This document shows, piece after piece, positions 26,827 through 53,457 of a stretch of DNA of 64,000 bases (position 1 is its first letter; each line of letters starts with the position of its first letter). This stretch comes from an uncultured Gemmatimonadota bacterium (GTDB lineage Bacteria; JAAXHH01). Location: contig OX638340.1 in NCBI GenBank assembly GCA_951812955.1, positions 2,016,001 to 2,080,000 of the forward strand, in the 5' to 3' direction. Made by a program: the position numbers and the translations under genes. The notes below the pieces were generated by a model that saw only the letters and a program-made list of their open reading frames with translations, was not told where the DNA came from and ran no database searches.

Positions 26827-28563
26827 CTACCGCCCGGGAATGGCCGATCCTGATTCGTCCCCTGCGATGTACATCGTGATGGAAGAGCTCATCACCTGGT
26901 CACCCCGCCACGTTCTGAATCCCGACGCGTTCGGCTCCAGCGCCGAGCCTTTCAGGTAGGGTTTCCATACCTGCGCACGCTGCCTGTGCCACAGAAACAC
27001 GCCGGCCACATCCTCCACCAGGAGCCGTTCCGCTTCCCTGTACAGGGCAATGCGTCGATCAGGGTCCCTGACCTCGGCGTCGGCCGCGGTCATCAGGCCA
27101 TCGAAGGCGGCGTTGTTCCAGTTGTGCCGGCCGTTGGACCGCCAGAGCCCGAGGAGGTTGCTCGGATCCACGAAATCGAACTCGTAGGGCACCAGGCCGA
27201 AGGTTAACGTATGGTTGTTCAGGCCGTCCATGAAGACCTTGTTCTCCACGTTGCGCACTTCGACCTCCATATTGAGGTTGCGATTCAGCATCGCCTGCAG
27301 TCCCTCGGCCGCGTCGCGGTGCATGGCAATCTCGTTGCGCAGCCACATGTCCAGTTCGGGGAGCCCGCGACCATCCGGATAACCGGCCTCCGCGAGCAGT
27401 TCCCGGGCGCGCGCCGGGTCGTACCCCTGGTCCTCGGCGTATATCCCGTCCGAATAGGCCGGAAAACCCGGGGGCAGCATGGCGTAGCCGGGTATGGCAA
27501 AGCCCCTGAGCGCGGAATTGCAAATCGCGGCCCGATCGATGGCGAGACTGATGGCCAGGCGTACTCTCCGGTCATTGAACGGTGGTTTCGTGACGTCGAA
27601 GAACAGGTAGTGGGTCCAGAAATTGGGCCAGGTATGCACCTGGTCGCTCAGGTTGTCGTCGGAAAGCAACCGGGCCAGCTCTGCCTGGTTCTCCACGTCG
27701 GTAATGTCGATTTCTCCGGCCTCATACGCCGGCAGCCGCGGGGGCGGCGTAGTCAGGTTAAACATCCTGTAGACCAGTTTTTCCAGGAAGGGTTTGTCGG
27801 CCCCGCGGTACATGGGATTGGCCTCGTAGATCATCCGTTCGCCCTTGGTCCATTCCGCCATGACGAACGGTCCCGAGGAAATACAGGTCTCCGGTCGGGT
27901 GGACCAGGTGTCACCGTGCTTCCTGACTGCGTGCTCGGGGGAAACCCAGGAATAGGTCAGCAGCAGGGGCATGTGGGGCGTGGGTTCCTCGGTGGCGACA
28001 TGCAGCGTGAGGTCGTCAGAAGCCCACACGCCGAGCGAGTCCACGGGCACTTTCCGGGCGACGACGGCCTGCCAATTCCGGATCGGCTGGTAGTACCACC
28101 CGAAGTCGTAGGCGTTTTCGGGATCGGCGCCACGGCGCAGGGAAAAGACGTAGTCGTGAGCAGTCAGCGGACGGCCGTCGCTCCATTGCTGTCCCGGACG
28201 CAGATGGAAGGTCCACACCAGTCCGTCATCGGACATCTCCCACCGTTCCGCGGCGCCGCCCCGCAACACGAAATTCCGGTTCGTGCGCGTCAACGGCTCG
28301 GCGATGATGTATTTTCCTTCCGCACCCTTATAAACCGTGCGGAACCACTCGTTGTAGGGCCGGGATTCGGAGAATTTGTACAGGACCTGCTGACCGGGAG
28401 GCAGGGCGTCAGCGGGCAACGGCACCCCGATGGAATTGACGTAACGCGGTCCGTTGTCGGGGAGGAGGGGATCGATCAGGCCGTAAGCCGACCAGATAAT
28501 CCCCGCGACGAGAAAGAAGCAAATCGAAGGACGTAGCATCGATATGCCGGTATGTTTTCGCAT
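26827..28563 (-). CDS. ABC transporter substrate-binding protein, family 5 (Dpp/Opp type)
   Basis: 578 aa with a signal peptide. Sits directly downstream (same strand) of DppC/DppB-like permeases. Confidence 0.75.
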   Translation of the reverse strand: MRKHTGISMLRPSICFFLVAGIIWSAYGLIDPLLPDNGPRYVNSIGVPLPADALPPGQQVLYKFSESRPYNEWFRTVYKGAEGKYIIAEPLTRTNRNFVLRGGAAERWEMSDDGLVWTFHLRPGQQWSDGRPLTAHDYVFSLRRGADPENAYDFGWYYQPIRNWQAVVARKVPVDSLGVWASDDLTLHVATEEPTPHMPLLLTYSWVSPEHAVRKHGDTWSTRPETCISSGPFVMAEWTKGERMIYEANPMYRGADKPFLEKLVYRMFNLTTPPPRLPAYEAGEIDITDVENQAELARLLSDDNLSDQVHTWPNFWTHYLFFDVTKPPFNDRRVRLAISLAIDRAAICNSALRGFAIPGYAMLPPGFPAYSDGIYAEDQGYDPARARELLAEAGYPDGRGLPELDMWLRNEIAMHRDAAEGLQAMLNRNLNMEVEVRNVENKVFMDGLNNHTLTFGLVPYEFDFVDPSNLLGLWRSNGRHNWNNAAFDGLMTAADAEVRDPDRRIALYREAERLLVEDVAGVFLWHRQRAQVWKPYLKGSALEPNASGFRTWRGDQVMSSSITMYIAGDESGSAIPGR

Positions 28564-28590: not shown

Positions 28591-29454
28591 CTACTCGTTC
28601 ATTCTCGGGTCGAGAGCGTCGCGGAGGCCGTCGCCGATGAGTGAAAATCCAAGCATGACCAGGGCGATCATGAAAACCGGGAAGAGGGCGAGATGCCAGT
28701 AGTAGATCACATTGGGCAGGTGGCTGCTGACCATCTGTCCCCAACTCGGAGTGGGCGGATTAATGCCCAGGCCGAGGAAACTCAGTCCCGCTTCTGCGAA
28801 GATGGCCTGGGGTATGCCCATGGCCAGGCCGACGATGATGGGGCTGAGTGCGTTCGGCAGCATGTGGCGCACTATGGTGTGCACGTTGGAAGCGCCCATG
28901 GACCGGGCGGCCCTGACGAAGTCGGACGCCCTAAGCGACAGGAACTGCGCGCGGACCAGGCGGCATACGCCCACCCAGCCGGTCACGCCGATGGCGAACA
29001 GCACGTTGCTCAAGCCGCTTCCCAGCCAGGCCATGATCAGGATGGCGAACAGCAGGCTGGGAAAGACCGACATGACGTCCACCAGGCGCATGACGATGAA
29101 ATCGGCTTTGCCCCCCTTGAACCCGGCGATGGCCCCGAGCGGCACCCCGATCAGCAGGGAGATCATCTGCGCGACGAATCCCACGATGAGCGAGATCCGG
29201 GCGCCGTACACGATCCGGCTGAAGTAATCCCGGCCGATGCTGTCCGTACCCATGGGGTGGGTCCAGGACGGGAACTGCCACGCCGCGTCGAAATTGGCCT
29301 CGGAATAATGGTACGGCGAGACCCACGGCGCGAAGATGGCCATGAACGAGATGACGATGATGATGACCCCCGCCACGACGGACAGCTTGTTCTTCATGTA
29401 GCGTCGCAGGGCGTCGCGCCAAAGGCCGCCTGTGGATTGAGTGATTTCCGTCAT
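28591..29454 (-). CDS. ABC transporter permease, DppC/OppC-like
   Basis: 287 aa, 6 TM helices, conserved EAA-type loop region. Adjacent to the family-5 binding protein. Confidence 0.75.
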   Translation of the reverse strand: MTEITQSTGGLWRDALRRYMKNKLSVVAGVIIIVISFMAIFAPWVSPYHYSEANFDAAWQFPSWTHPMGTDSIGRDYFSRIVYGARISLIVGFVAQMISLLIGVPLGAIAGFKGGKADFIVMRLVDVMSVFPSLLFAILIMAWLGSGLSNVLFAIGVTGWVGVCRLVRAQFLSLRASDFVRAARSMGASNVHTIVRHMLPNALSPIIVGLAMGIPQAIFAEAGLSFLGLGINPPTPSWGQMVSSHLPNVIYYWHLALFPVFMIALVMLGFSLIGDGLRDALDPRMNE

Positions 29455-29473: not shown

Positions 29474-30430
29474 CTAGTCTTTCGTTTTCTCCGTGGAGCG
29501 CCTTGCAGCGAGACGCTCGATGAGCAGTACGATCGCGCAGCCGGTGATGCCCAGGGCTACGGCCAGCAGGACTTCTTCCGATACCGAAGCGGGAAGGACG
29601 TTCTGCTGTATGAGGGGTTTAACCGCGCCCTGGCGGTCCGTGAACGTCTCCACCGTCTCCTTCCACGGCCAGATCTTCCGCAATGAACCGGCCATGAGGC
29701 CGATGAGGGCCGCAACGGTCAAGTCATGGTAGCGGCGCAACAGCCATCTGAGCACCCGCGCGAAAAAGATCAGTCCCAGGATTCCGCCGCACCCGAATAT
29801 GATGATGGGCAGGAAATCCCGCTCGACCACGGCATGAAGCATGTACTCGTACTTCCCCATAATGACCAGGATGAACGAACCGGAGATGCCGGGCAGGATC
29901 ATCGCGCAGATCGCGATGGTCCCGCTCAGGAACACGAACCATGCGGCCGTGGGGGTCTCGACGGGGACGGCGCCCACCAGTACGAAGGCTGCGGCCGCCG
30001 CCAGCAGCACCGCGAGTGCTTCCGTCGCGGTCCACGTGGTCACCTTCCTGCGCACGGTGAAGATCGAAGCGAGCACCAGTCCGAAGAAAAACGCCCACAC
30101 GTAGACGGGATGATGCGCGAGTGCCCACGCGAAAAATCGGGCCAGGCTGAATATGGCCACCATGATACCGGTGACGAGGGCGATCACGAACCGGTATGGG
30201 AATCTGTCGAGGGCCTCCGTGAACCGAAAGGAAACAAGCGAACGAAGGAACCTTGCGTTGACCGCGTGCACGGCGTCGAGCAGCTCTTCGTACACCCCCA
30301 GGATGAAGGCCATCGTTCCCCCGGACACTCCGGGGACGACATCGGCGACGCCCATGCAGAATCCTCGGGCGGTGATGCCCAAGTAGTCCTTGAACGTCCG
30401 TCTCGAACGCGATGAACCTTTTTCCATCAC
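29474..30430 (-). CDS. DUF368 family membrane protein
   Basis: Internally duplicated [18 protein letters not shown] and [18 protein letters not shown] motifs characteristic of DUF368. Overlaps the upstream permease by 4 nt, indicating co-transcription. Confidence 0.6.
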
Positions 30431-31359
30431 TTGCTCCCGCGTGTGTAGCGGACCCTGGGATCCACGAGGGCATAGAGGATGTCCGTAATCAGATAGACGA
30501 TACCGATCAGCACCGCGACGAGCAGCGTCAGCGCCATGATCATGGGATAGTCCCGTTCGAAGATGCTGGTGACGAAGAACTGTCCGAGGCCCGGTATGCG
30601 GAAAATGCCTTCGACGAACAGCGACCCGGTCATTACGCCGGGCAGCATCGGACCCATGATGGTCAGCAGCGGGATCAGGGAGTTTTTCAGCACGTGTATA
30701 AACAGGACGCTACGCTCTTTAAGGCCCTTGGCGCGCGCCGTGCGCACGTAATCCATCCGCAGGTTCTCGAGCACGCTCGAACGGGTATAACGGGCGATGA
30801 TGGCCATGGGACCCAGGGCATAGACGATTACAGGCATGATCCAGGTCTCGGGTCCGCCCCATCCGCCCGTGGGCAGGATCCTCCAGATGGTCGCGAAGAT
30901 GACGATGAACAATATGGAAATGGCGAAACTGGGCACAGTGATCCCAAGCGTCGCGAGCATAGTGGTCCCATAGTCCATCCAGGTGTTCTGTCGTATCGCG
31001 GAAAGGATGCCCAGGAGGATGCCGAAGGAGAAGGCCACGGCGAGGCCCATGCCGCCCAGTTGCATGCTGATGGGCCAGGTCCGCGCGATCAGGTCCGTCA
31101 CCGTCTCGCCCGGACTTTGAAAGGGGATGCCGAAATCGAATTGCAGCGCGTTCCACATGTACCGCCCGTACTGCTCGTACAGGGGCCGGTCCAGGCCGTA
31201 CTTGCGCAGTATATTCGCCTTGGCCTCGGCCGACAGAGGCATCTTCTCCTCGTCGAACGGGCCGCCCGGAACCGCATGCATCAGACTGAAGGTGATGATC
31301 GTGACCAGAAACAGCACGCCGATCAAGCCCGCGATGCGGTATATGATGTATCGTATCAT
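30427..31359 (-). CDS. ABC transporter permease, DppB/OppB-like
   Basis: N-terminus [36 protein letters not shown] is typical of DppB. 310 aa. Confidence 0.8.
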
Positions 31360-31676: not shown

Positions 31677-32792
31677 GTGCGGATTGTAGAAGTTTCCGCG
31701 CTGGTTCTGCGGCTGCCGGTAGTGACGGAGTCCTGTGACGGAACGCAGGATACCTGCCTGGTCAAAATCGAAACGGACGCGGGCATTACGGGTTGGGGAG
31801 AAGTCGATTCGTGTCCCACCGTGGTTAAGGCCATCATCGACGCGCCGCTGTCGCACCAGATCTGCAATGGCCTGGCCAACGCGCTGGCCGGTGCGGATCC
31901 CCTGGACATCGACGCGTGCACGTCACGGATGATGGAATCGGCCAATTACTACGGCCGGGTCGGTGTGGGCCGGCACGCCATGGCGGGGGTAAACCTGGCA
32001 CTCTGGGACATCGCGGGCAAGGCCGGCGGACGGCCCGTCTACCAACTCCTGGGTGGCGCGCACAGGCTGAAGTTCCGGGCCTATGCTTCCGTCCTGTTTG
32101 GAGACACGCCTGCCACGACCCGGACAATCGGGCAGAAGTACGCCGACCAGGGATTCACGGCAGTCAAGTTCGGCTGGGGACCCATGGGCCAGGACGAAAC
32201 GCAGGACGTCGCACTGGTGCGGGAGGCGCGCCGGGGCACGGGTGACGAGGTGGACGTACTCATCGACGCGGGGCAGGTCTGGGATTCGGAAACCGCGCTG
32301 ATCCGGTCCCGCCAGTTTGCCGAATACCGACCCTTCTGGATCGAAGAGCCGCTGCACCCCGACGACATCGATGGGTATGCCTCACTGACCGCGGAGAGTC
32401 CGGTTCCCATCGCCACAGGAGAAGCGGAATCCCGTCTCGAGGACTTTGAACGCCTGGTCACCAGGGGCGGGCTCGACTGGATTCAACCGGATCCGGGCCG
32501 CTGCGGCATTACGACCATGGCCGCGGCCGGCCGGACCGCCCACCGGCACGGCCGCAAGGTCGTTAATCACAGTTACAAGAGCGGCATTACCATGGCGGCG
32601 TCGCTCCATGCCCTGGCCTCCCTGCCCAACGCGTCCGTCTTCGAATTCTGCATGTCGGATTCGCCGCTGAGACATGAACTGACGCATGAACGTTTTACAA
32701 TTGATGAAGACGGTTTCGTGGCGGTGCCGGAAGGACCCGGACTCGGCGTCACGGTGAACGAGGAAACCGTAAACCAGTACCGCGTAGCGTAG
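31677..32792 (+). CDS. Enolase-superfamily enzyme (mandelate racemase/muconate lactonizing family; sugar-acid dehydratase-like)
   Basis: GTG start 8 nt downstream of RBS AAGGAGGA. N-terminal capping domain (VKIETDAGITGWGEV) and barrel-domain metal ligands (DAGQVWD, FWIEEP, DWIQPD). Confidence 0.75.
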   Translation: MRIVEVSALVLRLPVVTESCDGTQDTCLVKIETDAGITGWGEVDSCPTVVKAIIDAPLSHQICNGLANALAGADPLDIDACTSRMMESANYYGRVGVGRHAMAGVNLALWDIAGKAGGRPVYQLLGGAHRLKFRAYASVLFGDTPATTRTIGQKYADQGFTAVKFGWGPMGQDETQDVALVREARRGTGDEVDVLIDAGQVWDSETALIRSRQFAEYRPFWIEEPLHPDDIDGYASLTAESPVPIATGEAESRLEDFERLVTRGGLDWIQPDPGRCGITTMAAAGRTAHRHGRKVVNHSYKSGITMAASLHALASLPNASVFEFCMSDSPLRHELTHERFTIDEDGFVAVPEGPGLGVTVNEETVNQYRVA

Positions 32793-32816: not shown

Positions 32817-33218
32817 ATGGCCGCCCCCTCACCAGTCATGCATGCCGCACTCAACCGGATAAATATCGACGAGATCAAGGAACAGATAGGACCGCCGCCT
32901 GCATCCTGCGCGGTCGTTGCAGCAGACCACGTGACGGCGGCGTTCATCTGGCAGGAATCGGGCACGATCAACGACAACCACTGCCACGATTACGACGAAT
33001 GGTGGCTCGTACTGGAAGGCGAGATCGACTGGGTGATCGAAGGCCGGAATGAACCGGTCCACGCAAAAGCGGGAGATTTCATCTACGTGCCCGCCCTGAC
33101 CTTCCATCACATATTCCCGGTGGGCGGCAAGCCTTCGATCCGACTGGGGGTCGCCCTGACGGGACACGGCCACCTCCACGAGCGGCCGGAGCGCAAGGTA
33201 AAGGTCACGTTGGAGTAG
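32817..33218 (+). CDS. Cupin domain protein
   Basis: 133 aa; His-rich cupin motifs (NDNHCHDYDEWWLVLEGE ... GDFIYVPALTFHH). Confidence 0.6.
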   Translation: MAAPSPVMHAALNRINIDEIKEQIGPPPASCAVVAADHVTAAFIWQESGTINDNHCHDYDEWWLVLEGEIDWVIEGRNEPVHAKAGDFIYVPALTFHHIFPVGGKPSIRLGVALTGHGHLHERPERKVKVTLE

Positions 33219-33253: not shown

Positions 33254-33913
33254 ATGTCTACGAGAAATGAAAACCTCGCATCCATGAAGGAAGGCGGTGT
33301 GGTCGCGGTGCTCAGGGCAAGCAGTCCCGACGCGCTGGTCCACGTCGCCCAGGCTATCGGGAGGGGCGGGGTCGGGGCCGTCGAGATCACCATGACGACG
33401 CCCGGCGCCCTGGGCGTCATCGAAGAATGTGCGAGCAGGCTCGGGGGCGAACTGCTCCTTGGCGCAGGTTCCGTGCTGGACCCGGAGACGGCCCGCGCCG
33501 CCATACTGGCCGGCGCCGAATACATCGTGACACCAACGTTGAACCCGGACGTCATCACCCTCTGCCGCCGGTACGACAAGGTCGTCATCCCGGGCGCGTT
33601 GACGCCGACGGAAATACTGACGGCCTGGGAATGCGGCGCGGACATCGTGAAGGTGTTTCCTGCCACCGTGGTCGGACCTCGGTATTTCAGGGACGTGAAA
33701 GCGCCGCTTCCGCAGGTCGATCTCATGCCGACGGGTGGGGTAAACCTGGATAACGCCGGAGATTTCATCCGGGCCGGGGCCTGCGCCGTCGCCGTGGGCA
33801 GCAACCTGGTCGATAAGGCCGCCGTGGCCGCGGGCGAATGGCATGTGCTCACAGATACGGCCCGGGATTATGTGGATGCGGTCAGAAACGCCCGTCAGGA
33901 TGGTGGTGGATGA
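33254..33913 (+). CDS. eda: 2-dehydro-3-deoxy-phosphogluconate (KDPG/KHG) aldolase
   Basis: Full-length similarity to Eda, including the Schiff-base lysine context (VKVFPA) and PTGGV near the C-terminus. Confidence 0.8.
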   Translation: MSTRNENLASMKEGGVVAVLRASSPDALVHVAQAIGRGGVGAVEITMTTPGALGVIEECASRLGGELLLGAGSVLDPETARAAILAGAEYIVTPTLNPDVITLCRRYDKVVIPGALTPTEILTAWECGADIVKVFPATVVGPRYFRDVKAPLPQVDLMPTGGVNLDNAGDFIRAGACAVAVGSNLVDKAAVAAGEWHVLTDTARDYVDAVRNARQDGGG

Positions 33914-34743
33914 TTCGGAAGGCCGTGGTTCCCGTTGCGGGCCTGGGCACGCGGATGCTGCCCCTCACACGGTCAGTTCCCAAGGAAATGCTGCCCCTGG
34001 GCCGAAAACCGGCGATACACCGCGTGGTCGATGAACTGGCGGCGGCGGGAATCGAACATATCCTGTTCGTGACGTCCAGCCGAAAAACGGCGATCGAAGA
34101 GTACTTCGTGTCCGGCGGTCGGGAGGGTGGCCCGCCCCCGCTCGACTACGCTTTCGCCCGTCAGGATGTCCCGGCCGGAAACGGCGACGCCGTGCGGCTG
34201 GGCAAGGCCTTTGCGGGATCTGAACCCTTCGTCGTGGCCTGGGGCGACGCCGTGATCCGGTCGGCGACGGAAGGCAGCGTCGTGCGGCGCATGATGGAAA
34301 CCCACGCGAGAGCGCACGCCGCGTGCACCATTGCGGTGGAGTATGTACCCGAGGACAAGGTGTCGCGATACGGCATCGTAAAGCCCAGGTACGAATCCGA
34401 CACGGCCTTCCCCATCGACGATATCGTGGAGAAACCGGCGGCGGAAACCGCGCCCAGCCGCTACGCTGTTTCAGCCCGGTACATATGTGGCGCCGGGATC
34501 TTTACCGCGCTGGAGGAGACTCCCAGGGGAAGGAAAGGCGAGTTGTGGCTCGCCGACGCCATCCGCAGCTTGCTCCGTGAGGGCGGTCCGGTCTGGTGTG
34601 TGCCCCTGGACACTGACAGCAGGCGCTACGACATTGGCACACCCCTGACCTACTGGGAAGCCTTTGCCGATTACGCCCTGGAGGACGAGGCGGACGGAAC
34701 CTCCTTTCGTGAACTCCTGCAAGGGCGGTTGAACGATTCATAA
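33910..34743 (+). CDS. UTP-glucose-1-phosphate uridylyltransferase family (GalU-like sugar-1-phosphate nucleotidyltransferase)
   Basis: N-terminal AVVPVAGLGTRMLPLTRSVPKEMLPL matches the GalU G-x-G-T-R-x-LP-x-T-K-x-x-PKEMLP signature. Start overlaps the eda stop (ATGA). Confidence 0.75.
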   Translation: MIRKAVVPVAGLGTRMLPLTRSVPKEMLPLGRKPAIHRVVDELAAAGIEHILFVTSSRKTAIEEYFVSGGREGGPPPLDYAFARQDVPAGNGDAVRLGKAFAGSEPFVVAWGDAVIRSATEGSVVRRMMETHARAHAACTIAVEYVPEDKVSRYGIVKPRYESDTAFPIDDIVEKPAAETAPSRYAVSARYICGAGIFTALEETPRGRKGELWLADAIRSLLREGGPVWCVPLDTDSRRYDIGTPLTYWEAFADYALEDEADGTSFRELLQGRLNDS

Positions 34744-34852
34744 CGAGCGAGTGGCAACGCGCATGGAGCATGCGTATCGGGGCACACACCTGCTTGACAA
34801 CACGCATCGGGCGTGCGTTCAGCGTGAATAGCGCGCACGCATTGGAGTCCAA

Positions 34853-35836
34853 TTGAACGGTACCGTAACCGCTTCCGCGCCCGGCCGGGTCGGCATCGTG
34901 GGCAATCCGACCGACATGTACGGCGGCAGCGTGATCTCGTGCTCGACGAAGGAAAGGGCGCGGGTCGATATACAGCCGGCGGACCGCCTGATTCTGGATG
35001 CCGGCGCCGAACAGCGGGTCATCTCGACGCCGGACGACCTGGTCACAAGGGAAGACATCTTCGATATCGCCCGGGTCGCGCTTTCCGGATCCGAATCGAC
35101 GGACCTGCGCGTCAGGATCTCCTGGACGACCGATATTCCTTTCCGTGCCGGACTGTCGGGGTCTACCGCGCTGCTCGTATCCATGGTAGCCGGCCTGCTC
35201 GCCTTCCGCGGCACCCGCCTCAGTCCCTATCACCAGGCGGAACTCGTCCGCAGAATCGAGTACCGGAACCTGACATTCTGCGGGTACCAGGATGCCTACA
35301 TGTGTACCTTCGGCGGGCTGCATTACATGGACTTCAGGGGGAAGGAATTCCACCTGGAATACGGGACCGATCCTTTCGCCACCATGGAACTGATCGAAAT
35401 GTCCGCAGCCCTGCCGGCCGTCGTGATCATCACAGGAGGGCAGCGCGTCTCCGGAGGCGTGCATACGCCCTTGCGGGAACGCTGGCTCGCCGGGGAGACA
35501 GAAGTGGTCGAGGCATACGAGGCCATCGCCGGCCTGGCCCGGGAAGGCAAGAAAGCAGTACTTGAAGACCGGCTCGACAAGCTGGGAAAGCTGATGAACG
35601 AGAACCAGACACTGACGCAGTCGCTCGGCGGATCCAATCTGGAGGACGACAGGTTCATCGAACTGGCCCGGCAGGCAGGCGCGTCCGGCGCCAAGCTCGC
35701 GGGCAGCAGCGGCGCTATCGTCGTGCTTCACGAGTCACCCGGAGATCTAGTAAAAGTAATGATGGACGCCGGTGCAGTGGGCATGCTGGAACCCGCACCG
35801 GGACCGGGGCTCCGTATCGAGCAGGAAGAATCATGA
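34853..35836 (+). CDS. GHMP kinase resembling plant glucuronokinase (sugar-1-kinase)
   Basis: The motifs RVGIVGNPTDMYGGSVIS, IPFRAGLSGSTALLVSMVAGLL, YQDAYMCTFGGLHYMDF, RERWLAGE and AKLAGSSGAIVVL match glucuronokinase from memory. TTG start with GGAG 8 nt upstream. Confidence 0.6.
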   Translation: MNGTVTASAPGRVGIVGNPTDMYGGSVISCSTKERARVDIQPADRLILDAGAEQRVISTPDDLVTREDIFDIARVALSGSESTDLRVRISWTTDIPFRAGLSGSTALLVSMVAGLLAFRGTRLSPYHQAELVRRIEYRNLTFCGYQDAYMCTFGGLHYMDFRGKEFHLEYGTDPFATMELIEMSAALPAVVIITGGQRVSGGVHTPLRERWLAGETEVVEAYEAIAGLAREGKKAVLEDRLDKLGKLMNENQTLTQSLGGSNLEDDRFIELARQAGASGAKLAGSSGAIVVLHESPGDLVKVMMDAGAVGMLEPAPGPGLRIEQEES

Positions 35837-35899: not shown

Positions 35900-37192
35900 G
35901 TGAACATCACGCTCGACTACGACAGGTCCGGACTCGAAGTGCGTGTCCCGGACGAGAACCTCGTCGCGGTCCTGAACATGCGGGAGACGCCGCCGCTGGA
36001 TGACCCCGTTGCCGCGACTGGAGATGCGCTTTGCCAGCCCGTGGCCAGCCCACCGCTCGAGGAGATCGTCCGGGGCCGCCGGAACGCCTGCGTGGTTGTC
36101 TCCGACATCACGCGTCCCGTGCCCCACGACATTATCCTGCCGCCGCTGCTGGAGTGCCTGGAACGGTGCGAACTGCCGCCGGAGAATATCACCATCCTGG
36201 TCGCCACCGGGCTGCACGCTCCGATGGACGACGCGCAGCTTCGCGAGACCCTGACCGACGACGTGGTCGAGCGCTATCCCATCGTCAACCACATCGCACG
36301 CAACGGAAATGAACAGGCCGATCTGGGGACCACGAGCACCGGTATCCCCATCCACGTGGACCGCAGATATGTCGAAAGCGACCTCAAGGTGCTGACCGGG
36401 TTGATCGAGCCGCACTTCATGGCCGGGTATTCGGGTGGACGCAAGCTCGTCGCGCCCGGACTCGTGGGCGTCGAAACGATCGAGCACCTCCACGGACCTG
36501 GGATACTGGAACACCCCCGCGCCACGACGGGCGTCCTCGACGGCAACCCGCTTCACGAAGCCTCGCTTGAAATCGCCCGTAAGGCCTGGGTCGATTTCAT
36601 TCTCAACGTCGCCATGGACGAGGACCGCCGTGTCACCGGGGTGTTTGCCGGCGAACTCGACCGTGCGCACCGGTTCGGGGTCGACCACGTGAACGGCATG
36701 GTGGTGGCCACCGTCGAGGAACCGGTGGACATCGTCGTGACCTCAGCTGCAGGCTATCCCCTGGACACGACCTTCTACCAGGCCGTGAAGGGCATGGTCG
36801 GCGTGCTGGACATCCTGAAGGAGGGCGGATCCATCGTCATCGCCGCCGGATGCGCCGACGGGATCGGCAGCGCGGAGTTCGAAGGGTTGCTTCGGAAGAC
36901 GACGGACATCCACGCATTTGTCGAATGGATCCAGCAACCGGGCGTATTCACCATCGACCAGTGGGAGATCGAGGAACTGGTCAAGGCGTTGAAGAAGGGC
37001 CGGGTATATCTTTACACGGATGGATTGAGTGACGAGGACGTGCGCGCATGCCTGGTCGAGCCGGTTCCTTCCGTCGAGGCGGGCATCGCACGCGCCGTGG
37101 ATCGCCACGGCCCCAGCGCAACCATCGCCGTAGTCCCGAGAGGTCCCTACGTCATTCCCCGGGTTGTTCCCGGGCAGGACGCCGCCGGTTAG
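35900..37192 (+). CDS. LarA-family (nickel-pincer-nucleotide-dependent) 2-hydroxyacid racemase/epimerase homolog
   Basis: SDITRP, ATGLHA (His corresponding to LarA H108) and EPHFMAGYSGGRK (His/Lys corresponding to H174/K184) are conserved. About 430 aa, similar to LarA. GTG start with RBS AAGGGAGA. Confidence 0.7.
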   Translation: MNITLDYDRSGLEVRVPDENLVAVLNMRETPPLDDPVAATGDALCQPVASPPLEEIVRGRRNACVVVSDITRPVPHDIILPPLLECLERCELPPENITILVATGLHAPMDDAQLRETLTDDVVERYPIVNHIARNGNEQADLGTTSTGIPIHVDRRYVESDLKVLTGLIEPHFMAGYSGGRKLVAPGLVGVETIEHLHGPGILEHPRATTGVLDGNPLHEASLEIARKAWVDFILNVAMDEDRRVTGVFAGELDRAHRFGVDHVNGMVVATVEEPVDIVVTSAAGYPLDTTFYQAVKGMVGVLDILKEGGSIVIAAGCADGIGSAEFEGLLRKTTDIHAFVEWIQQPGVFTIDQWEIEELVKALKKGRVYLYTDGLSDEDVRACLVEPVPSVEAGIARAVDRHGPSATIAVVPRGPYVIPRVVPGQDAAG

Positions 37193-37217: not shown

Positions 37218-37745
37218 ATGACCTCCAACAAGTACGTCCACCATACGCCCTGCATACACCCATCCGCCTTCGTTGCGGAAAGCGCCGATCTGATCGGTGC
37301 GGTCCACATCGGCAAGGACGCAAGCGTCTGGTACCAGGTGGTGATCCGGGCGGATGACGAACCCGTGACCATCGGCGGCGGGACCAACGTACAGGACGGT
37401 AGCGTTCTCCACATCGACACGGGCATGCCCACCGTACTTGGAGAGGGCGTAACCGTGGGGCACCGGGCGATTGTCCACGGCGCGGTAGTGGAAGATCACG
37501 TATTGGTCTCCATGGGCGCCGTGATCCTCAGTGGCGCGCACATCGGCCAGAACAGCATCATCGGCGCCGGCGCACTGGTGCTCGAAAACATGGAAGTGCC
37601 TCCGGGATCCCTTGTCGTGGGCGTTCCCGGACGCGTGGTTCGGTCCGTAACGGACGAGCAGATCGAACGCATTCACCGCACCGCGGAGGGGTATGTAACA
37701 CGTCGTGGAATCTACCTCGAACGGCGCGCTCACGGTACCTCTTGA
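37218..37745 (+). CDS. Gamma-carbonic-anhydrase-like / hexapeptide-repeat (LbH) protein
   Basis: Left-handed beta-helix hexapeptide repeats with His ligands (VHIGKDASVWYQVVIRAD...VLHID...). 176 aa from the ATG at 37218. Confidence 0.7.
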   Translation: MTSNKYVHHTPCIHPSAFVAESADLIGAVHIGKDASVWYQVVIRADDEPVTIGGGTNVQDGSVLHIDTGMPTVLGEGVTVGHRAIVHGAVVEDHVLVSMGAVILSGAHIGQNSIIGAGALVLENMEVPPGSLVVGVPGRVVRSVTDEQIERIHRTAEGYVTRRGIYLERRAHGTS

Positions 37746-37849: not shown

Positions 37850-37923
37850 GCGCCTGTAGCTCAATTGGATAGAGCACCTGACTACGGATCAGGAGGTTGG
37901 GGGTTCGACTCCCTCCGGGCGTA
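37850..37923 (+). tRNA. tRNA-Arg (anticodon ACG)
   Basis: Hand-folded cloverleaf: anticodon stem CCTGA/TCAGG, loop CTACGGA, T-arm GGGGG TTCGACT CCCTC, acceptor GCGCCTG/CGGGCGT. Confidence 0.8.
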
Positions 37924-37944: not shown

Positions 37945-38438
37945 ATGAGAAGCAACGGCGGAGAACACGAGGGATGGCTTCGGCTGGCCCTTGAAGAAGC
38001 CAGGTCGGCCGGCGCTGCCGGCGATGTGCCTGTCGGAGCCGTGATCGTACACGACGGCGTTGTGATCGGACGGGGTCAGAATCGCGTGGAACGTCTGCGT
38101 GATCCCACCGCCCATGCCGAAATGCTCGCGATCCGCGACGCCAGCGCCGCACTGGGTTACGAGCGGCTTGCCGGTGCCGCACTCTACGTTACGCTTGAAC
38201 CCTGCGCCATGTGCGCGGGCGCGATCGTGCTGGCCCGCTTGCAGCGCCTTGTGTACGGTGCCGCCGATCCCAAGACCGGAGCATGTGGTTCACTGCGCGA
38301 TATCGTGCGGGACACCCGGTTGAATCACCAGGTGGAAGTTGCGGGAGGTGTTCTGGCAGAGACCTGTTCAGGCCTGCTGAAGGACTTCTTCAGATCGAAA
38401 CGCAGAACGGGAGATACGGCTGTCGAACCGAGGTTGCC

Positions 38439-38460
<22 letters not shown>
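37945..38460 (+). CDS. tadA: tRNA-specific adenosine(34) deaminase
   Basis: Zinc-binding deaminase motifs HAEMLAIR and PCAMCAGAI. Start 22 nt after the tRNA-Arg(ACG) gene. The 3' end overlaps the following tRNA-Ser by about 22 nt. Confidence 0.85.
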
Positions 38461-38528
<68 letters not shown>

Positions 38529-38673: not shown

Positions 38674-40644
38674 TCACCGCCCGGTTCGCGCGAAAGCAAC
38701 GAGCGACGCTTCTTCCCCTGAACCCGTTGCGATGACGACGAACTGCCGACCCGACCGGGTACGGTACGTCATCGGGTTCCCGTTTGCAGGATACGTCGTC
38801 CCGCCGCGCCAGATCTCGGCGCCGGTCGTCTTGTCGAAGGCGTACAGGTACGGATCGCCGCCGCCGAGGAATACGACGCCGCCCCGGGTCACCATCGGCC
38901 CGGAGTTCCCGATCGTGCCCATCCGCTCCGGCAGGTCGACACCGCTAAGCAACGGATGCTCGCGGATCTCCTCGCTACCTTCCCCGAACGGCACCCGCCA
39001 CGCAATCTCTCCCGCGTGAAGGTCAATCGCCACCAGGTGCGCGTAGGGTGGTTTGGTGAGCGGGATCGGGCCGAGTGGCCTCTCTGGGGCCTCCGCGGCA
39101 CCTGGGCCGCCGACCTCCCTGTACATGACGAGCGTCGCGCCAAAGGGACAGTTGTTGCTGTATTCCACGTCGACGCGCGGGTCGTCGCCCGTATTCTCGC
39201 AGAGCTGGTTCGTGTCGGCCTCCTCCGAAGTCCGCACGTACAGTATTCCGGTCTCGGGGTCGAAGGCCGCCCCGCCCCAGTTCGCTCCGCCGCTCGCGCC
39301 CGGGCGCTGGAGCGTCCCCCGGAGACTCGGCGGGGTGAATAGAGGACCCATCCGAAACTGCTTCATCTCTGCCACCGCGAGCGCATGGATCTCCGGTGTC
39401 AGGTCGTTCGCGTCGTCGAGCGACACCCCCTGCCTGCCGAATGGCGGCGGTTTGGTCGGGAACGGCTGCGTCGGATACAGCACCTCGCCAGGCACGTCCG
39501 TGGTCGTGTCCACGGCACGCTCCTCGATCGGCCATACCGGCTCACCTGTGACCCGGTCGAGCACGAATGTGAAGCCGTTTTTAGCTACTTGGGCCACCGC
39601 GTCGATTTCGCGGCCGCCCACCGTGATCGTCACCAGGTTCGGCGCCGCGGCCAAGTCGTAGTCCCACACGCCGTGGTGCACGGTCTGGAAGTGCCACCGC
39701 CGTTCGCCTGTGCGTGCGTCGAGACACACGAGGGACTCGGCGAAAAGATTCGCCCCCGGGCGTCGGCCTCCCCAGTAGTCGCTGCTTGGCGTGCTCGTCG
39801 GCGCATAGAGGAGTCCCCGCTCGGCGTCGAGCGACATCAGTCCCCACACGTTGGCGTGACCGCTATAACGCCAGGACTCGTCCTCCCAGGTCTCTGCACC
39901 GAAGTCGTCGCCTGATTGCGGGACAGTGAAGAATACCCAACGACGCTCGCCCGTTCGTACGTCGAAGGCCTGCACGGTTCCGGGCGGGTCAAACTTTCGC
40001 TGCACCCCGTCGGGCACCCGGCTCCCCACGATGACCAGATCTTCGAACACCACCGGAGGCGAGGTCTGGTCAAACTCATATCGGCTCACCTCGCGGCCAT
40101 GTCCCCTGGTCAACAGCACGCTCCCGTTCTCGCCAAAGTCCCTGACCAGTTTTCCGGTCACAGCGTTGATCGAATACAGCCGATCGCGGCTGTTGAGGAA
40201 TACACGGACAGCGCCTTCGTCTTTCCAGATAGCGATGCCCCGGTGCTTGAATCCGGTCGGCCCCGCACCTTCCTGCCCACCCTCGTACGCCCTGGGATCG
40301 AAAGCCCAGAGCACTACGCCAGTTTCGGCGTCAAGCGCAACGACGCGCGTGTACATGGTCGTCAGGTAGAGGACGTCACCCATCATGACGGGCGTTGCCT
40401 GGAAAGGCCCCGGTCGCGTGCCGTATTCCTGGAGGGGCGTCTCGTTTGGCTTCCACTCCCAGACGATCTCCAGATCACCGGCGTTGGCCGCCGTTATTTC
40501 TGCCGCCGCCGAGTACTTGGTGTGCTCCTGGTCGGACCCGACAAAGGGCCACTCGGCCATGACTGTCGGTTCCTGGGCGACCGAATTCCCTGTGTTCGCG
40601 AGGGAAAATGATATCAATAACGCTGTTGCAAGAATTCGTTTCAT
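38674..40644 (-). CDS. PQQ-dependent dehydrogenase, periplasmic (glucose/quinate dehydrogenase-like 8-bladed propeller)
   Basis: Signal peptide. N-terminal EWPFVGSDQEHTKYSAAAEITAANAGDLEIVWEW matches the quinoprotein xDxxxxRYSPLxQI...L..AW signature. Repeated W-containing propeller motifs; C-terminal AFDKTTGAEIWRG. Confidence 0.7.
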   Translation of the reverse strand: MKRILATALLISFSLANTGNSVAQEPTVMAEWPFVGSDQEHTKYSAAAEITAANAGDLEIVWEWKPNETPLQEYGTRPGPFQATPVMMGDVLYLTTMYTRVVALDAETGVVLWAFDPRAYEGGQEGAGPTGFKHRGIAIWKDEGAVRVFLNSRDRLYSINAVTGKLVRDFGENGSVLLTRGHGREVSRYEFDQTSPPVVFEDLVIVGSRVPDGVQRKFDPPGTVQAFDVRTGERRWVFFTVPQSGDDFGAETWEDESWRYSGHANVWGLMSLDAERGLLYAPTSTPSSDYWGGRRPGANLFAESLVCLDARTGERRWHFQTVHHGVWDYDLAAAPNLVTITVGGREIDAVAQVAKNGFTFVLDRVTGEPVWPIEERAVDTTTDVPGEVLYPTQPFPTKPPPFGRQGVSLDDANDLTPEIHALAVAEMKQFRMGPLFTPPSLRGTLQRPGASGGANWGGAAFDPETGILYVRTSEEADTNQLCENTGDDPRVDVEYSNNCPFGATLVMYREVGGPGAAEAPERPLGPIPLTKPPYAHLVAIDLHAGEIAWRVPFGEGSEEIREHPLLSGVDLPERMGTIGNSGPMVTRGGVVFLGGGDPYLYAFDKTTGAEIWRGGTTYPANGNPMTYRTRSGRQFVVIATGSGEEASLVAFARTGR

Positions 40645-41376: not shown

Positions 41377-41661
41377 CGGTCGTGCTAGACGGGGAGTTAG
41401 CGGTGCCCTGTAACCCGCAATCCGCTACAGCGGGGTCGAATTCCCATCCCAAGGATCGCACTTGCGTCGCCGGTATGCGTTACAGCCGGTATTGAAAGTC
41501 AGGTCCTGCGCAACGTGACAACGCCCAACTCCGTCAGGACCGGAAGGTAGCAGCGGTAAGCGACTGAATCGTGTGCCGCGGGAGCGCCTGGCCGGAGCCG
41601 GCGGTACGGATGCCCCGATACGAGGAGATTCGAGGGTGGGTGCACGACCGCTTAACTGTTT
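41377..41661 (+). ncRNA. ffs: Signal recognition particle RNA, long (Bacillus-type) form with Alu domain
   Basis: 5' GGTCGTGCTAGACGGGGAG...GGTGCCCTGTAACCCGCAATCCGCTACAGCGGGGTCGAATTCCC closely resembles the B. subtilis scRNA Alu domain from memory. The S-domain core GTCAGGACCGGAAGGTAGCAGC...GTGTGCCGCGGGAGCGCCTGGCC matches the 4.5S consensus with a GGAA tetraloop. The 3' end GGGTGCACGACC pairs with the 5' end. Sits immediately upstream of dnaX, as in Bacillus. Confidence 0.8.
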
Positions 41662-50988: not shown

Positions 50989-51873
50989 ATGCGCATTCTC
51001 ATAACCGGCGCCCGTGGACAACTGGGTACGGACCTGCAGCGTTCACTGACGGATCACGAGTTGATACCGTGCACACGCGACGAGCTCGACGTCACGGAGA
51101 AACACCGTGTGTACGCCCTGCTGAAGGACCACCGGCCCGATGCGGTGATTAACGCCGCGGCGTACCACCGGGTCGACGAGTGCGAGTCCCATCCCGACAA
51201 GACATTTACCGTCAATGCCTTCGGTCCCTGGCACCTGGCCATGGCATGCCGCATGTACGCGGCGAAACTGGTGCACATCAGCACGAATTTCGTGTTCGAC
51301 GGCACGGCGGACAGGCCGTACCGGGAAGATGACCTGCCCCTGCCGCTGAACGTATACGGCACGGCCAAGCTGTCCGGCGAGCATTTGGTACGGTCGACCT
51401 GGGACCGTCATTTCATCATCCGGACCACCGGCCTGTTCGGACATTCCGGCGGTGGTGGCAAAGGGTACAATTTCGTCGAGGCCATGATCCGGGCGGGGAT
51501 GGAAAGACGGGAAGTGGTCGTGGTTAGCGACCAGGTGATGTCGCCCACGGCGACGGCGGACCTGGCCAGGACACTCGGGGAACTCGTCACAACCGATACC
51601 TACGGCACCTACCACGTCACCAGTGGCGGCGCGTGCTCCTACTTCGACTTCGCGCGGACCATCTTCCAGAAAACAGGAATAGAAACTGCAGTGAAACCCA
51701 CGTCCACCGAATCGTACGGCGCGCCGGCCGCCCGTCCCCTGTATACCGTACTGGACAACGGCCGGATCCGGTCCCTGGGCATCGCGGAGATGCCCCCGTG
51801 GGAAGACGCCCTGGACGACTACCTGGCGCGACGGGCCGGTCATGGCGAAGAAGCGATCGGCAGGATCCCATGA
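50989..51873 (+). CDS. dTDP-4-dehydrorhamnose reductase family (RmlD-like NDP-sugar reductase)
   Basis: N-terminus MRILITGARGQLG Rossmann motif, catalytic YGTAKLSGE (YxxxK). 294 aa. Confidence 0.75.
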   Translation: MRILITGARGQLGTDLQRSLTDHELIPCTRDELDVTEKHRVYALLKDHRPDAVINAAAYHRVDECESHPDKTFTVNAFGPWHLAMACRMYAAKLVHISTNFVFDGTADRPYREDDLPLPLNVYGTAKLSGEHLVRSTWDRHFIIRTTGLFGHSGGGGKGYNFVEAMIRAGMERREVVVVSDQVMSPTATADLARTLGELVTTDTYGTYHVTSGGACSYFDFARTIFQKTGIETAVKPTSTESYGAPAARPLYTVLDNGRIRSLGIAEMPPWEDALDDYLARRAGHGEEAIGRIP

Positions 51874-52856
51874 TCATCACCCAGACCCCCCTGCGCATCA
51901 GCTTCGCAGGCGGGCTGACGGATTTCTCCGATTTCTACGAGCGGGAAGACGGCCTGGTCGTCAGCGCGGCCATCGACAAATACATCTTCGTCATCATCAA
52001 TGAACGATTCGACGACCGGATTTACATCAACTATTCGAAAAGGGAGGCCGTCGATCATCCCGACGAGATCGAGCACGACCTGATCCGGGAGGCCCTGCGG
52101 CTTACCGGCGTGAGCCGGGGCGTGGAAATCACGACGCTGACGGACATTCCCGCCGAAGGATCTGGCCTGGGGTCCTCGAGCAGTATTACCGTGGGCCTAT
52201 TGAACGCCCTGTATACCTATTGCGGCAATCCGCAGCCCACGGAGAAACTGGCGCGGGACGCCTGCGAGATTGAAATCGACCGGTGCGCACAGCCAATCGG
52301 GAAGCAGGACCAGTACATCGCGGCCTACGGCGGGCTGCGCGGTTTCACTTTCCGGCCCGTCGGCGTGGAGGTGGAACACCTCGGCCTCGCCAACGGACAT
52401 GCGGAATGGTTGAGTGACAGTCTGATGCTGTTCTACACCAACAAGACGCGCAAGGCGGAAACCATCCTGCGCGAGCAGAAAGCGAATATGTCCGACAAAT
52501 TCACCCTCGTTAAAGAAATCAAATCCGTGGCGCAAGGTGTGCGTGCAGCCCTGACGGCCGGCCGGATCGACGGCATGGGCGAGCTGCTGGACCGGGGCTG
52601 GAAGTGGAAGTACAGGATGTCCGGCCTGGTGAGCAACGCCGAGATCGACTCCATGTACCGACGGGCCAAGGACGCCGGCGCCACCGGGGGCAAGGTATGC
52701 GGTGCGGGAGGCGGTGGTTTCCTGCTCCTGTTTTGTCCCGCATCCACCCGTTCCAGGGTCCGCGAAGCGCTGTCCGACTACAGGGAACTGCCCTTCAACC
52801 TGGAGCGGGACGGCACCAAGGTGATCTTCAATATGCGGAGGCAGGTATCAAAGTGA
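51870..52856 (+). CDS. GHMP kinase, D-glycero-D-manno-heptose 7-phosphate kinase (HddA)-like
   Basis: N-terminal PLRISFAGGLTD motif and GHMP ATP-binding loop PAEGSGLGSSSSITVGL. Start overlaps the rmlD-like stop (ATGA). Confidence 0.65.
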   Translation: MIITQTPLRISFAGGLTDFSDFYEREDGLVVSAAIDKYIFVIINERFDDRIYINYSKREAVDHPDEIEHDLIREALRLTGVSRGVEITTLTDIPAEGSGLGSSSSITVGLLNALYTYCGNPQPTEKLARDACEIEIDRCAQPIGKQDQYIAAYGGLRGFTFRPVGVEVEHLGLANGHAEWLSDSLMLFYTNKTRKAETILREQKANMSDKFTLVKEIKSVAQGVRAALTAGRIDGMGELLDRGWKWKYRMSGLVSNAEIDSMYRRAKDAGATGGKVCGAGGGGFLLLFCPASTRSRVREALSDYRELPFNLERDGTKVIFNMRRQVSK

Positions 52857-52929
52857 TCCGCGAGAACCACGACTGGACACGGGAGGTCCGATGATCCGCG
52901 AATACCTCGACTGGACACGGGAGGTCCTG
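52854..52929 (+). repeat. 38-bp imperfect tandem duplication spanning the gmhA start codon
   Basis: Unit 1 (52854-52891) TGATCCGCGAGAACCACGACTGGACACGGGAGGTCCGA; unit 2 (52892-52929) TGATCCGCGAATACCTCGACTGGACACGGGAGGTCCTG, about 32/38 identical. The upstream copy encodes a 13-codon mini-ORF (VIRENHDWTREVR) ending in ATGA at the real start. Confidence 0.7.
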
Positions 52930-53457
52930 GACCGGATCGATCCCGGCGAAGTGCAGGAACTCATCGATCTCCTGATGGACGCGCGGAAGAAAGGGCGAGG
53001 CATCTTCGTCATAGGGAACGGCGGCAGCGCGGCCACGGCCTCGCATTTCGCCGTGGACCTGGGCAAGGGCACGCTGCGCGGCACGGAAGATCAACCCCGA
53101 TTCCGGGTCAACAGCCTTACCGACAACCTCCCCTACGTCACCGCATGGGCAAACGACTTCGACTACGACCTGGTCTTCGAACAGCAACTTCGCAACCTGG
53201 GCGCCCCCGGCGATGTGGTCATCGGCATCAGCGCGTCGGGGAACAGTCCCAACGTGGTCCGCGCCCTGGAATTCGCCCGTACCGCCGGGATGGTTTCGGT
53301 CGCGATGACGGGGTTCTCAGGCGGCACGCTCATGGAAATCGCAGATCATTCTGTCCATGTCCCCGTAGACGACTACGGCATGGCGGAGAACATGCACATG
53401 CTCATCGTCCACATCATCGTCACGCAGACCACGTCCCGCGTAGCGAACGGCGAATGA
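52891..53457 (+). CDS. gmhA: D-sedoheptulose 7-phosphate isomerase (SIS domain)
   Basis: GIFVIGNGGSAATASHFAVDL SIS motif. 188 aa. Confidence 0.8.
   Translation: MIREYLDWTREVLDRIDPGEVQELIDLLMDARKKGRGIFVIGNGGSAATASHFAVDLGKGTLRGTEDQPRFRVNSLTDNLPYVTAWANDFDYDLVFEQQLRNLGAPGDVVIGISASGNSPNVVRALEFARTAGMVSVAMTGFSGGTLMEIADHSVHVPVDDYGMAENMHMLIVHIIVTQTTSRVANGE

Follow-up and report, generated by a model that had tools for sequence, protein, structure and literature searches.

A conserved GalU-like nucleotidyltransferase and GHMP kinase gene pair in uncultured bacteria: a candidate UDP-sugar salvage module

The gene pair and its layout

We analyzed a stretch of 64,000 nucleotides (hereafter, the window) from an uncultured Gemmatimonadota bacterium (assembly GCA_951812955.1, contig OX638340.1, positions 2,016,001 to 2,080,000 of the forward strand), focusing on two of its genes, one encoding a GalU-like sugar-1-phosphate nucleotidyltransferase (the transferase) and the other, downstream of it, a sugar kinase of the GHMP family. 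The window has a GC (guanine plus cytosine) content of 62%, and the pair is surrounded by a co-directional row of genes on the + strand. A first-pass annotation made from the sequence alone had regarded the pair as a plant-type glucuronokinase homolog with a partner pyrophosphorylase, forming a possible salvage route from sugar-1-phosphate to nucleotide sugar, and had located both genes on this strand at the coordinates below, which we confirm:

33910–34743, + strand: GalU-like sugar-1-phosphate nucleotidyltransferase, 277 amino acids (aa) (Pfam NTP_transferase, PF00483, E 3e-30)
34744–34852, + strand: spacer between transferase and kinase, 109 base pairs (bp)
34853–35836, + strand: GHMP-family sugar kinase, 327 aa, TTG start (Pfam GHMP_kinases_N, GHMP_kinases_C, and GalKase_gal_bdg)

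The ATG start codon of the transferase (33910) overlaps the TGA stop codon of the Eda-type aldolase gene upstream (ATGA at 33910–33913), and the homologs of the kinase match its length of 327 aa. The kinase had been described as lying immediately after the transferase; it is indeed the neighboring gene on the same strand, and only the wording is slightly generous, given the 109-bp spacer. No terminator-like or promoter-like sites were predicted in this spacer, a search of it against Rfam returned zero matches, and its folding was not unusual when compared with shuffled sequences (z = -0.87). On the empty Rfam search and the fold score, a regulatory RNA or attenuator in the spacer was rejected. 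The transferase and kinase are likely to be co-transcribed across it.

Nearest characterized relatives of the kinase

By every available score, glucuronokinase is the closest characterized relative of the window kinase. As the reference we used P0122, a database entry named “putative glucuronokinase [Arabidopsis thaliana]” that was retrieved by probing the protein database with an Arabidopsis sequence. The window kinase aligns with P0122 over its full length (BLASTP, 29% identity, 112 bits, E 1e-32) and scores 119 bits against a hidden Markov model (HMM) built from 117 plant glucuronokinases, while in the reciprocal direction the plant glucuronokinases score ~160 bits against an HMM of the window kinase family. 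When the two families were compared directly using hhalign, the probability was 100% (E 3.6e-57, 313 columns). The affinity to sugar kinases proposed in the first-pass annotation is thus borne out, glucuronokinase scoring 112–119 bits and the models of mevalonate kinase, galactokinase, HddA, and Fkp 87, 56, 48, and 25 bits, respectively.

The kinase scores above the cut-offs of the Pfam models PF00288 (42.9 bits) and PF08544 (31 bits), and it contains the GHMP phosphate-binding motif II (PxxGxGLxSSxA) as IPFRAGLSGSTAL. Thirty positions are invariant in both the window family and the glucuronokinases, including RxGxxGNPxD, PxxGxS, the catalytic QD, MDF, SxxxH, and KxxGxxG; by analogy with galactokinase, the N-terminal GNP(S/T)D may be the sugar-binding motif. 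The five motifs that had been quoted as shared with the Arabidopsis enzyme are all present in the translation of the kinase, and the plant blocks quoted there are essentially right when compared with P0122, apart from two one-letter slips (RQRWLDGD rather than RRRWLDGD, and SKFTGSGGAVVVF rather than AKFTGSGGAVVVF).

A different assignment, in which the kinase would act on mevalonate or, like the HddA/WcbL type, on a heptose 7-phosphate, is suggested by the names of some of its best matches. The top match in NCBIfam is a mevalonate kinase model (PRK03926, 86.9 bits), with TIGR00549, also for mevalonate kinase, at 71.9, galactokinase at 56, HddA at 48.5, and Fkp at 25 bits, and the best chains in the PDB by sequence are an archaeal mevalonate kinase (62 bits), WcbL (51 bits), and HddA types (46 bits), the Methanosarcina mazei mevalonate kinase and WcbL being among the top matches in both the sequence and the Foldseek searches. 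These scores are, however, far under the respective cut-offs (403 for PRK03926, 163 for TIGR00549, and 600 for HddA), and glucuronokinase itself scores higher. It is worth noting that the genuine Arabidopsis glucuronokinase gives the same ranking of weak matches, also with mevalonate kinase at the top, because the NCBIfam library does not contain any glucuronokinase model; the label “mevalonate kinase” is therefore uninformative here. The Arabidopsis enzyme scores 112 bits against the window kinase vs. at most 37 bits against any PDB chain. In addition, there are no adjacent mevalonate-pathway genes, a UTP (uridine triphosphate)-type GalU-like protein would be an unsuitable partner for a mevalonate kinase, and the window encodes another, HddA-like kinase next to a GmhA-like isomerase (51633–53457), which argues against a heptose kinase. 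We consider either assignment very improbable, and in reciprocal sequence and profile comparisons the best homologs of the kinase were not mevalonate or heptose kinases.

The AlphaFold model of the kinase (pLDDT 86.8, pTM 0.88) has the GHMP fold, with TM-scores of 0.72–0.81 to mevalonate kinase, WcbL, GalK, and Fkp in a Foldseek search of the PDB. The best matches (0.81) are WcbL and Fkp, which are anomeric sugar kinases, and mevalonate kinases score 0.72–0.75. No glucuronokinase structure was found in the PDB, so that, beyond these TM-scores, the fold cannot separate a glucuronokinase from mevalonate kinase, WcbL, or GalK.

Conservation of the pair across phyla

We scanned GTDB with a single genome for each species and found a relative of the window kinase in 491 genomes, mostly of uncultured bacteria; we examined the loci of the best 80, all of them in metagenome-assembled genomes (MAGs), labeled Gemmatimonadota, Latescibacterota, Zixibacteria, Chloroflexota/Anaerolineae, Planctomycetota, or Armatimonadota. 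Of these 80 loci, 73 carry a transferase homolog directly upstream of the kinase and on its strand, and two of the seven exceptions fall at contig ends. The gap from the transferase stop to the kinase start has a median of 2 bp in these relatives, and about half of the gaps are within 10 bp. In Anaerolineales and on two other contigs, where kinase identity is 46–52%, the 301-aa transferase and the kinase are the only genes to remain next to each other, 1–5 bp apart, and all remaining neighbors differ. Among the best 80 loci, no neighbor besides the transferase is conserved across phyla. The transferase and the kinase are, overall, a conserved functional unit, and the pairing of a kinase with a pyrophosphorylase, on which the first-pass annotation had based its salvage module, holds across several phyla and recurs in fused and adjacent versions in the sister clade, as discussed below.

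Outside a block of related loci (L013–L038), the only other recurrent neighbor among the remaining 54 loci is a gene encoding a divergent xylose-isomerase-like TIM-barrel protein (AP_endonuc_2), found directly upstream of the pair in 19 of them, nearly all from Chloroflexota MAGs (e.g., 977–1960 in L054 and 6233–7048 in L007). Its best matches reach about 20–30 bits (L-ribulose-5-phosphate 3-epimerase, Art22) and point to no specific family. It could encode an enzyme that makes or converts the sugar used by the kinase. In Zixibacteria and some Latescibacteria (L036–L038, L001, and L004), a hybrid histidine kinase of ~550 aa that carries two receiver domains is encoded between the transferase and the kinase, which suggests local regulation of the module. 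No fusions of the two genes were found within the window kinase family among its 120 best matches.

The transferase and its fused relatives

The transferase retains the GalU motifs GLGTRxLPxT(K/R), PKEMLP, GD, and VEKP, which are also conserved in 70 aligned relatives. Its named best matches are GalU throughout, and its best relative of solved structure is Bacillus subtilis YngB (155 bits), the top score among the solved GalUs. On the GalU model TIGR01099, however, the transferase scores 213.8 bits and does not reach the equivalog cut-off of 326.8, and five of its relatives (four linked to a kinase and one the N-terminal domain of a fusion) also remain below this cut-off, at 193–297 bits each. 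Hence, it does not group firmly with the housekeeping GalU.

The sequences to which the transferase is more similar are linked or fused to kinases of the glucuronokinase clade. It scores 243 bits with the L011 transferase, which is encoded downstream of a metagenomic “glucuronokinase,” 207 bits with the kinase-adjacent transferase of Thermostilla marina, and 160–192 bits with the N-terminal domains of eight of nine prokaryotic fusions, the ninth, truncated P0404, giving 89 bits. By sequence comparison, then, the transferase appears nearer to the transferases linked or fused to glucuronokinase-clade kinases than to the solved GalUs, and across these systems the transferase co-varies with the kinase family. 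No match was found in a phmmer comparison of the transferase with the N-terminal domains of the eukaryotic fusions known as GKUP (glucuronokinase with putative uridyl pyrophosphorylase), whose transferase domain is of another type. We also considered APSR, found in the window transferase where GalU has APSN, as a carboxylate-binding signature, and rejected it since this position is mixed among the 70 relatives (R in 37, N in 24) and the signature is thus not family-wide.

The prokaryotic fusions, in which a GalU-like transferase is joined to a glucuronokinase-clade kinase, are 528–633 aa long (P0387, P0398–P0404, P0410, and P0425). They recur on contigs of up to 407 kb and are therefore not assembly artefacts. 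Systems of this sister clade, fused or adjacent, were noted at 6001–7902 in L094 and 5055–7050 in L093, and one of the fusions lies in an exopolysaccharide locus that also encodes a GT4 glycosyltransferase, a UDP-GlcNAc 2-epimerase-like protein, a UDP-sugar dehydrogenase, and the exosortase EpsH. In Thermostilla marina, a cultured planctomycete, the transferase and a glucuronokinase-clade kinase are unfused and follow each other in this order, 56 bp apart, and this species would be a tractable organism for testing such pairs. A TIM-barrel gene also lies near the Thermostilla pair; it is unrelated to the TIM-barrel gene of the Chloroflexota loci.

These comparisons bear on the simplest explanation of the locus, namely that the transferase is a housekeeping GalU for UDP-glucose synthesis and the kinase an unrelated neighbor, with no module at all. 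This is consistent with the GalU names of all its best matches, with the intact GalU catalytic motifs, with the 109 bp between the genes in the window, and with a housekeeping neighborhood (tadA, ffs, dnaX, recR, and pgsA) that the window shares with Zixibacteria and Latescibacteria. It is difficult to reconcile with a transferase that stays adjacent to the kinase in 73 of 80 loci across phyla, with a median gap of 2 bp while the other neighbors change, that belongs to the type fused to glucuronokinase-clade kinases, that resembles kinase-linked transferases more than it does the solved GalUs, and that, together with its five relatives, misses the equivalog cut-off. We therefore regard a housekeeping role as improbable. 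Based on its motifs and relatives, the transferase is predicted to be the UDP-sugar pyrophosphorylase of a module with the kinase.

A proposed UDP-sugar salvage module

We propose, with a probability of roughly 60%, that the pair is a dedicated two-step salvage module leading from a sugar through its sugar-1-phosphate to a uridine diphosphate (UDP)-sugar. In the first step, the GHMP kinase would transfer a phosphate from adenosine triphosphate (ATP) to the anomeric hydroxyl of a free monosaccharide and so form its 1-phosphate, and in the second step, the GalU-like transferase would convert the sugar-1-phosphate and UTP to a UDP-sugar and pyrophosphate, with the UDP-sugar available to glycosyltransferases. 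Phosphorylation at C1 is suggested by analogy with the glucuronokinase relatives and with the best structural matches, WcbL and Fkp, all of which are anomeric kinases, and UTP as the nucleotide is suggested by the GalU-type motifs. For the sugar, a hexuronic acid such as D-glucuronate (GlcA) would be the leading candidate, as glucuronokinase is the nearest characterized relative of the kinase, although the sugar may differ from glucuronate since the kinase belongs to a distinct clade.

Several observations weigh against this proposal. The two genes are separated by 109 bp in the window. Moreover, in zebrafish GKUP, where a bacterial-type transferase domain is fused to glucuronokinase for the salvage of UDP-GlcA and the kinase is specific for GlcA, the pyrophosphorylase activity of the fused domain was not demonstrable in vitro (Gangl et al., 2014; PMC3938481), and this transferase domain is, as mentioned above, of a type other than the window transferase. 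The remaining points concern the kinase. In a neighbor-joining tree of 118 sequences (60 bootstraps with fast distance, HddA-like outgroup), the clade that contains plant, fusion (including fish), and stand-alone glucuronokinases excludes the window family in 60 of 60 bootstraps, and the window family is sister to the glucuronokinases relative to the HddA-like outgroup in only 30 of 60. Eight positions are conserved inside each family yet different between them, and these are concentrated at the catalytic Asp. In particular, Arg196, which is near-invariant in glucuronokinases, is replaced by Ala (Ala148) beside the catalytic Asp of the window kinase, and if Arg196 binds the carboxylate, glucuronate is unlikely as the substrate.

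The separation of the two kinase families is also evident from their scores. We searched the Arabidopsis glucuronokinase against 1.84 billion representative proteins and obtained 484 clusters at E <= 1e-30, of which the best 150 representatives each score at least 209 bits with 38–78% identity; the window kinase reaches only about 79–112 bits with proteins of this clade. The representatives of the clade include many fusions of ~600–680 aa, such as P0245, the carp “glucuronokinase with putative uridyl pyrophosphorylase,” and also stand-alone proteins of ~335 aa that carry the JGI name glucuronokinase. For the window family, the only JGI name is “galactokinase/mevalonate kinase-like predicted kinase.” In 42 of 60 bootstraps the window family forms a monophyletic group, and its catalytic Asp motif is an invariant CGYQDAYMC vs. 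AGLQDRVxQ in glucuronokinases. As a conserved basic residue next to the catalytic base has been lost, an anionic substrate should not be assumed. A second apparent swap, Arg108 to Asp71 in the MAFFT alignment, was set aside because hhalign aligns this region otherwise, leaving the swap at the catalytic Asp as the only solid one. The window kinase thus belongs to a separate clade and is not an orthologue of glucuronokinase. Accordingly, of the earlier designation as a plant-type glucuronokinase homolog, the relationship to glucuronokinase as the closest characterized relative stands, and glucuronate is only a candidate substrate for a kinase that lies outside the clade proper and does not possess Arg196; “plant-type” is misleading, as bacterial relatives are numerous and bacterial homologs had already been noted (PMC2823444).

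Two versions of the salvage proposal differ in the sugar. The pair might represent true bacterial salvage of UDP-glucuronate (GlcA to GlcA-1-phosphate to UDP-GlcA), functionally orthologous to the plant glucuronokinase (GlcAK) with UDP-sugar pyrophosphorylase (USP) and to zebrafish GKUP, which in this lineage would form a branch point with uronate/hexonate catabolism through the dehydratase and Eda. This version draws on glucuronokinase as the nearest characterized relative, on the shared invariant residues that include GNP(S/T)D, on a transferase subfamily common to the glucuronokinase-clade kinases, on the fused relative whose exopolysaccharide locus also encodes a UDP-sugar dehydrogenase, and on the KDG-kinase and Eda/dehydratase neighbors in related lineages, which fit acid-sugar metabolism. 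It is contradicted by the consistent exclusion of the window family from the glucuronokinase clade, by the Arg196 to Ala change and the family-specific motif at the catalytic Asp, by the JGI name “glucuronokinase,” which is given to the core clade and not to the window family, and by a gene context that is not kept with the pair outside related lineages, and we consider it unlikely, if well short of negligible. Alternatively, the pair might salvage a sugar other than glucuronate, perhaps one without a known bacterial anomeric kinase, in which case CGYQDAYMC with the lost glucuronokinase Arg would mark the changed specificity; we hold this second version to be possible, on a tentative basis.

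Gene neighborhood and other features of the window

The genes flanking the pair are as follows, the first two being given as context only:

~31677–32792, + strand: enolase-superfamily acid-sugar dehydratase (Pfam MR_MLE_N and MR_MLE_C)
32817–33218, + strand: small cupin protein (Pfam Cupin_2)
33254–33913, + strand: Eda-type KDPG/KHG aldolase (Pfam Aldolase, E 1e-41; TIGR01182 eda, 184 bits, above cut-off)
35900–37192, + strand: homolog of the LarA-family nickel-pincer 2-hydroxyacid racemases (Pfam Lar_N and LarA_C)
~37218–37745, + strand: gamma-carbonic-anhydrase-like hexapeptide protein (Pfam Hexapep; NF050158, 169 bits, below cut-off)
37850–37923: tRNA-Arg(ACG)
~37945–38460: tadA
38439–38526: tRNA-Ser(CGA), overlapping the 3' end of tadA

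The best NCBIfam matches of the dehydratase are galactonate, gluconate, and arabinonate dehydratases, each below its cut-off, and its true start is likely near V64 of the open reading frame called from 31488. The LarA homolog scores 452 bits with PDB 9EID, a “broad-substrate spectrum lactate racemase A,” and the annotated genes included none for larB, larC, or larE.

On Zixibacteria and Latescibacteria contigs, the order is a PfkB kinase, Eda, the transferase, the hybrid histidine kinase/response regulator, the GHMP kinase, LarA, and the hexapeptide protein, with TadA following the hexapeptide protein on the Latescibacteria contig and dnaX, ybaB, recR, and pgsA located downstream, which is the housekeeping neighborhood of the window; in Zixibacteria, LarA directly follows the kinase with a 4-bp overlap. 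Eda is linked to the transferase in 25 loci labeled Gemmatimonadota, Latescibacterota, or Zixibacteria, all within L013–L038, and outside this block an Eda homolog is found only in L089, ~1.6 kb upstream of the transferase. LarA follows the kinase in 25 of the 26 loci of the block and is absent from the rest of the best 80; among these 80 loci, the hexapeptide protein after LarA and the nearby TadA were likewise detected only in this block. A close homolog of the dehydratase, together with the cupin, is present only in the closest relatives. The dehydratase/aldolase/LarA surroundings are therefore lineage-specific layers (Gemmatimonadota, Latescibacterota, and Zixibacteria) outside the conserved unit. 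The dehydratase, cupin, Eda, and LarA that had been taken as an unusual catabolic embedding of the pair are real, and the embedding is confined to related lineages. It is possible that acid-sugar catabolism and activation branch at this point in the lineage, although the evidence does not require it. LarA was also considered as a sugar-acid epimerase feeding the kinase, and this was rejected, its best match being a broad-spectrum 2-hydroxyacid racemase and its linkage lineage-confined.

The tRNA-Arg(ACG) gene lies directly upstream of tadA, whose product is the deaminase that edits A34 of precisely this tRNA; a longer call of the tadA reading frame (from 37897) runs into the tRNA, and the true start must therefore be later. 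Between tadA and a block that includes 41380–41647 and comprises tRNA-Ser/tRNA-Ala, SRP-RNA, and dnaX sits a gene on the - strand for a PQQ-dependent glucose/alcohol dehydrogenase of 656 aa (38674–40644; PF01011, 637 bits). In the Zixibacteria and Latescibacteria relatives, the corresponding interval contains no called genes.

The second GHMP kinase of the window (407 aa), in the pair at 51633–53457, is HddA-like (149 bits, cut-off 600) and is followed by a SIS/GmhA-like protein (124 bits, cut-off 209). These two genes probably form a divergent heptose-nucleotide pair that is distinct from the module. Upstream of the dehydratase, on the - strand, a DUF368/VCA0040-like gene (“undecaprenyl phosphate translocase-like,” 29474–30430) lies between two ABC permease genes (28591–29454 and 30427–31359), with an SBP_bac_5 binding protein (26827–28563, - strand) encoded downstream, in what is a transporter operon of the Dpp/Opp/Nik type. 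A DUF368-type gene inside such an operon is an odd insertion.

Implications

The genes of the pair are currently annotated only as “hypothetical,” “galactokinase family protein,” or GalU. Once the substrate is identified, these labels could be put right across hundreds of genomes, and it would become clear which environmental or host-derived sugar is recycled into the envelope or exopolysaccharides of these bacteria. If the proposed function is correct, the module would extend nucleotide-sugar salvage to large uncultured bacterial groups, and a compact pair of a kinase and a UDP-sugar pyrophosphorylase could serve in the one-pot enzymatic synthesis of UDP-sugars. The broad bacterial distribution of the family is also relevant to the question of how the eukaryotic glucuronokinases arose.

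Comparison with known systems

Salvage routes in which a dedicated kinase and a pyrophosphorylase turn free sugars into nucleotide sugars are well documented for plants, for some animals, and for a few bacteria (Fkp and AmgK-MurU). Pieslinger et al. (2010; PMC2823444), who cloned the Arabidopsis glucuronokinase, mentioned homologs in “a few bacteria,” with Dyadobacter and Verrucomicrobium as examples, and in the open-access full-text literature we found no characterized bacterial member and nothing on the sister family.

The plant system of GlcAK1 (At3g01640, EC 2.7.1.43) and USP follows the logic of a kinase and then a pyrophosphorylase that is predicted here, and its kinase is homologous to the window kinase over the full length. 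Plant USP, however, is a eukaryotic-type protein of ~600 aa encoded elsewhere in the genome, whereas the partner in the window is a GalU-like protein of ~280 aa encoded next door, and the window kinase belongs to a separate clade without the conserved Arg196. Zebrafish GKUP and similar eukaryotic fusions likewise have a short bacterial-type transferase first and a glucuronokinase-family kinase second, but they are single polypeptides with a kinase of the core glucuronokinase clade, as opposed to two genes and another clade in the window. The closest architectural relatives are the prokaryotic fused and adjacent systems, the latter exemplified by Thermostilla marina, which have the same transferase subfamily and gene order and differ in that their kinase is from the core glucuronokinase clade.

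Among the bacterial salvage systems, Bacteroides Fkp also combines a GHMP anomeric sugar kinase with a nucleotidyltransferase for the salvage of one sugar, and its kinase has a similar fold (TM 0.81); it is fused, GTP (guanosine triphosphate)-dependent, and fucose-specific, and the sequence similarity of the window kinase to it is marginal (25 bits). AmgK-MurU of Pseudomonas (MurNAc/GlcNAc) and HddA-HddC (heptose) are, like the window pair, two-gene units of a kinase and a nucleotidyltransferase, but AmgK is not known to be a GHMP kinase, HddA acts on heptose 7-phosphate and its partner transferase is GDP (guanosine diphosphate)-forming, and the window proteins score far under the cut-offs of the MurU, HddA, and HddC models. 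Finally, GalU and YngB have the fold and catalytic motifs in common with the window transferase, which differs from GalU in lacking a segment of ~15–20 residues after residue 67 and in the changes of GLGHA to GNGDA and QLTDA to WLADA and which, unlike GalU and YngB, is systematically linked to a kinase.

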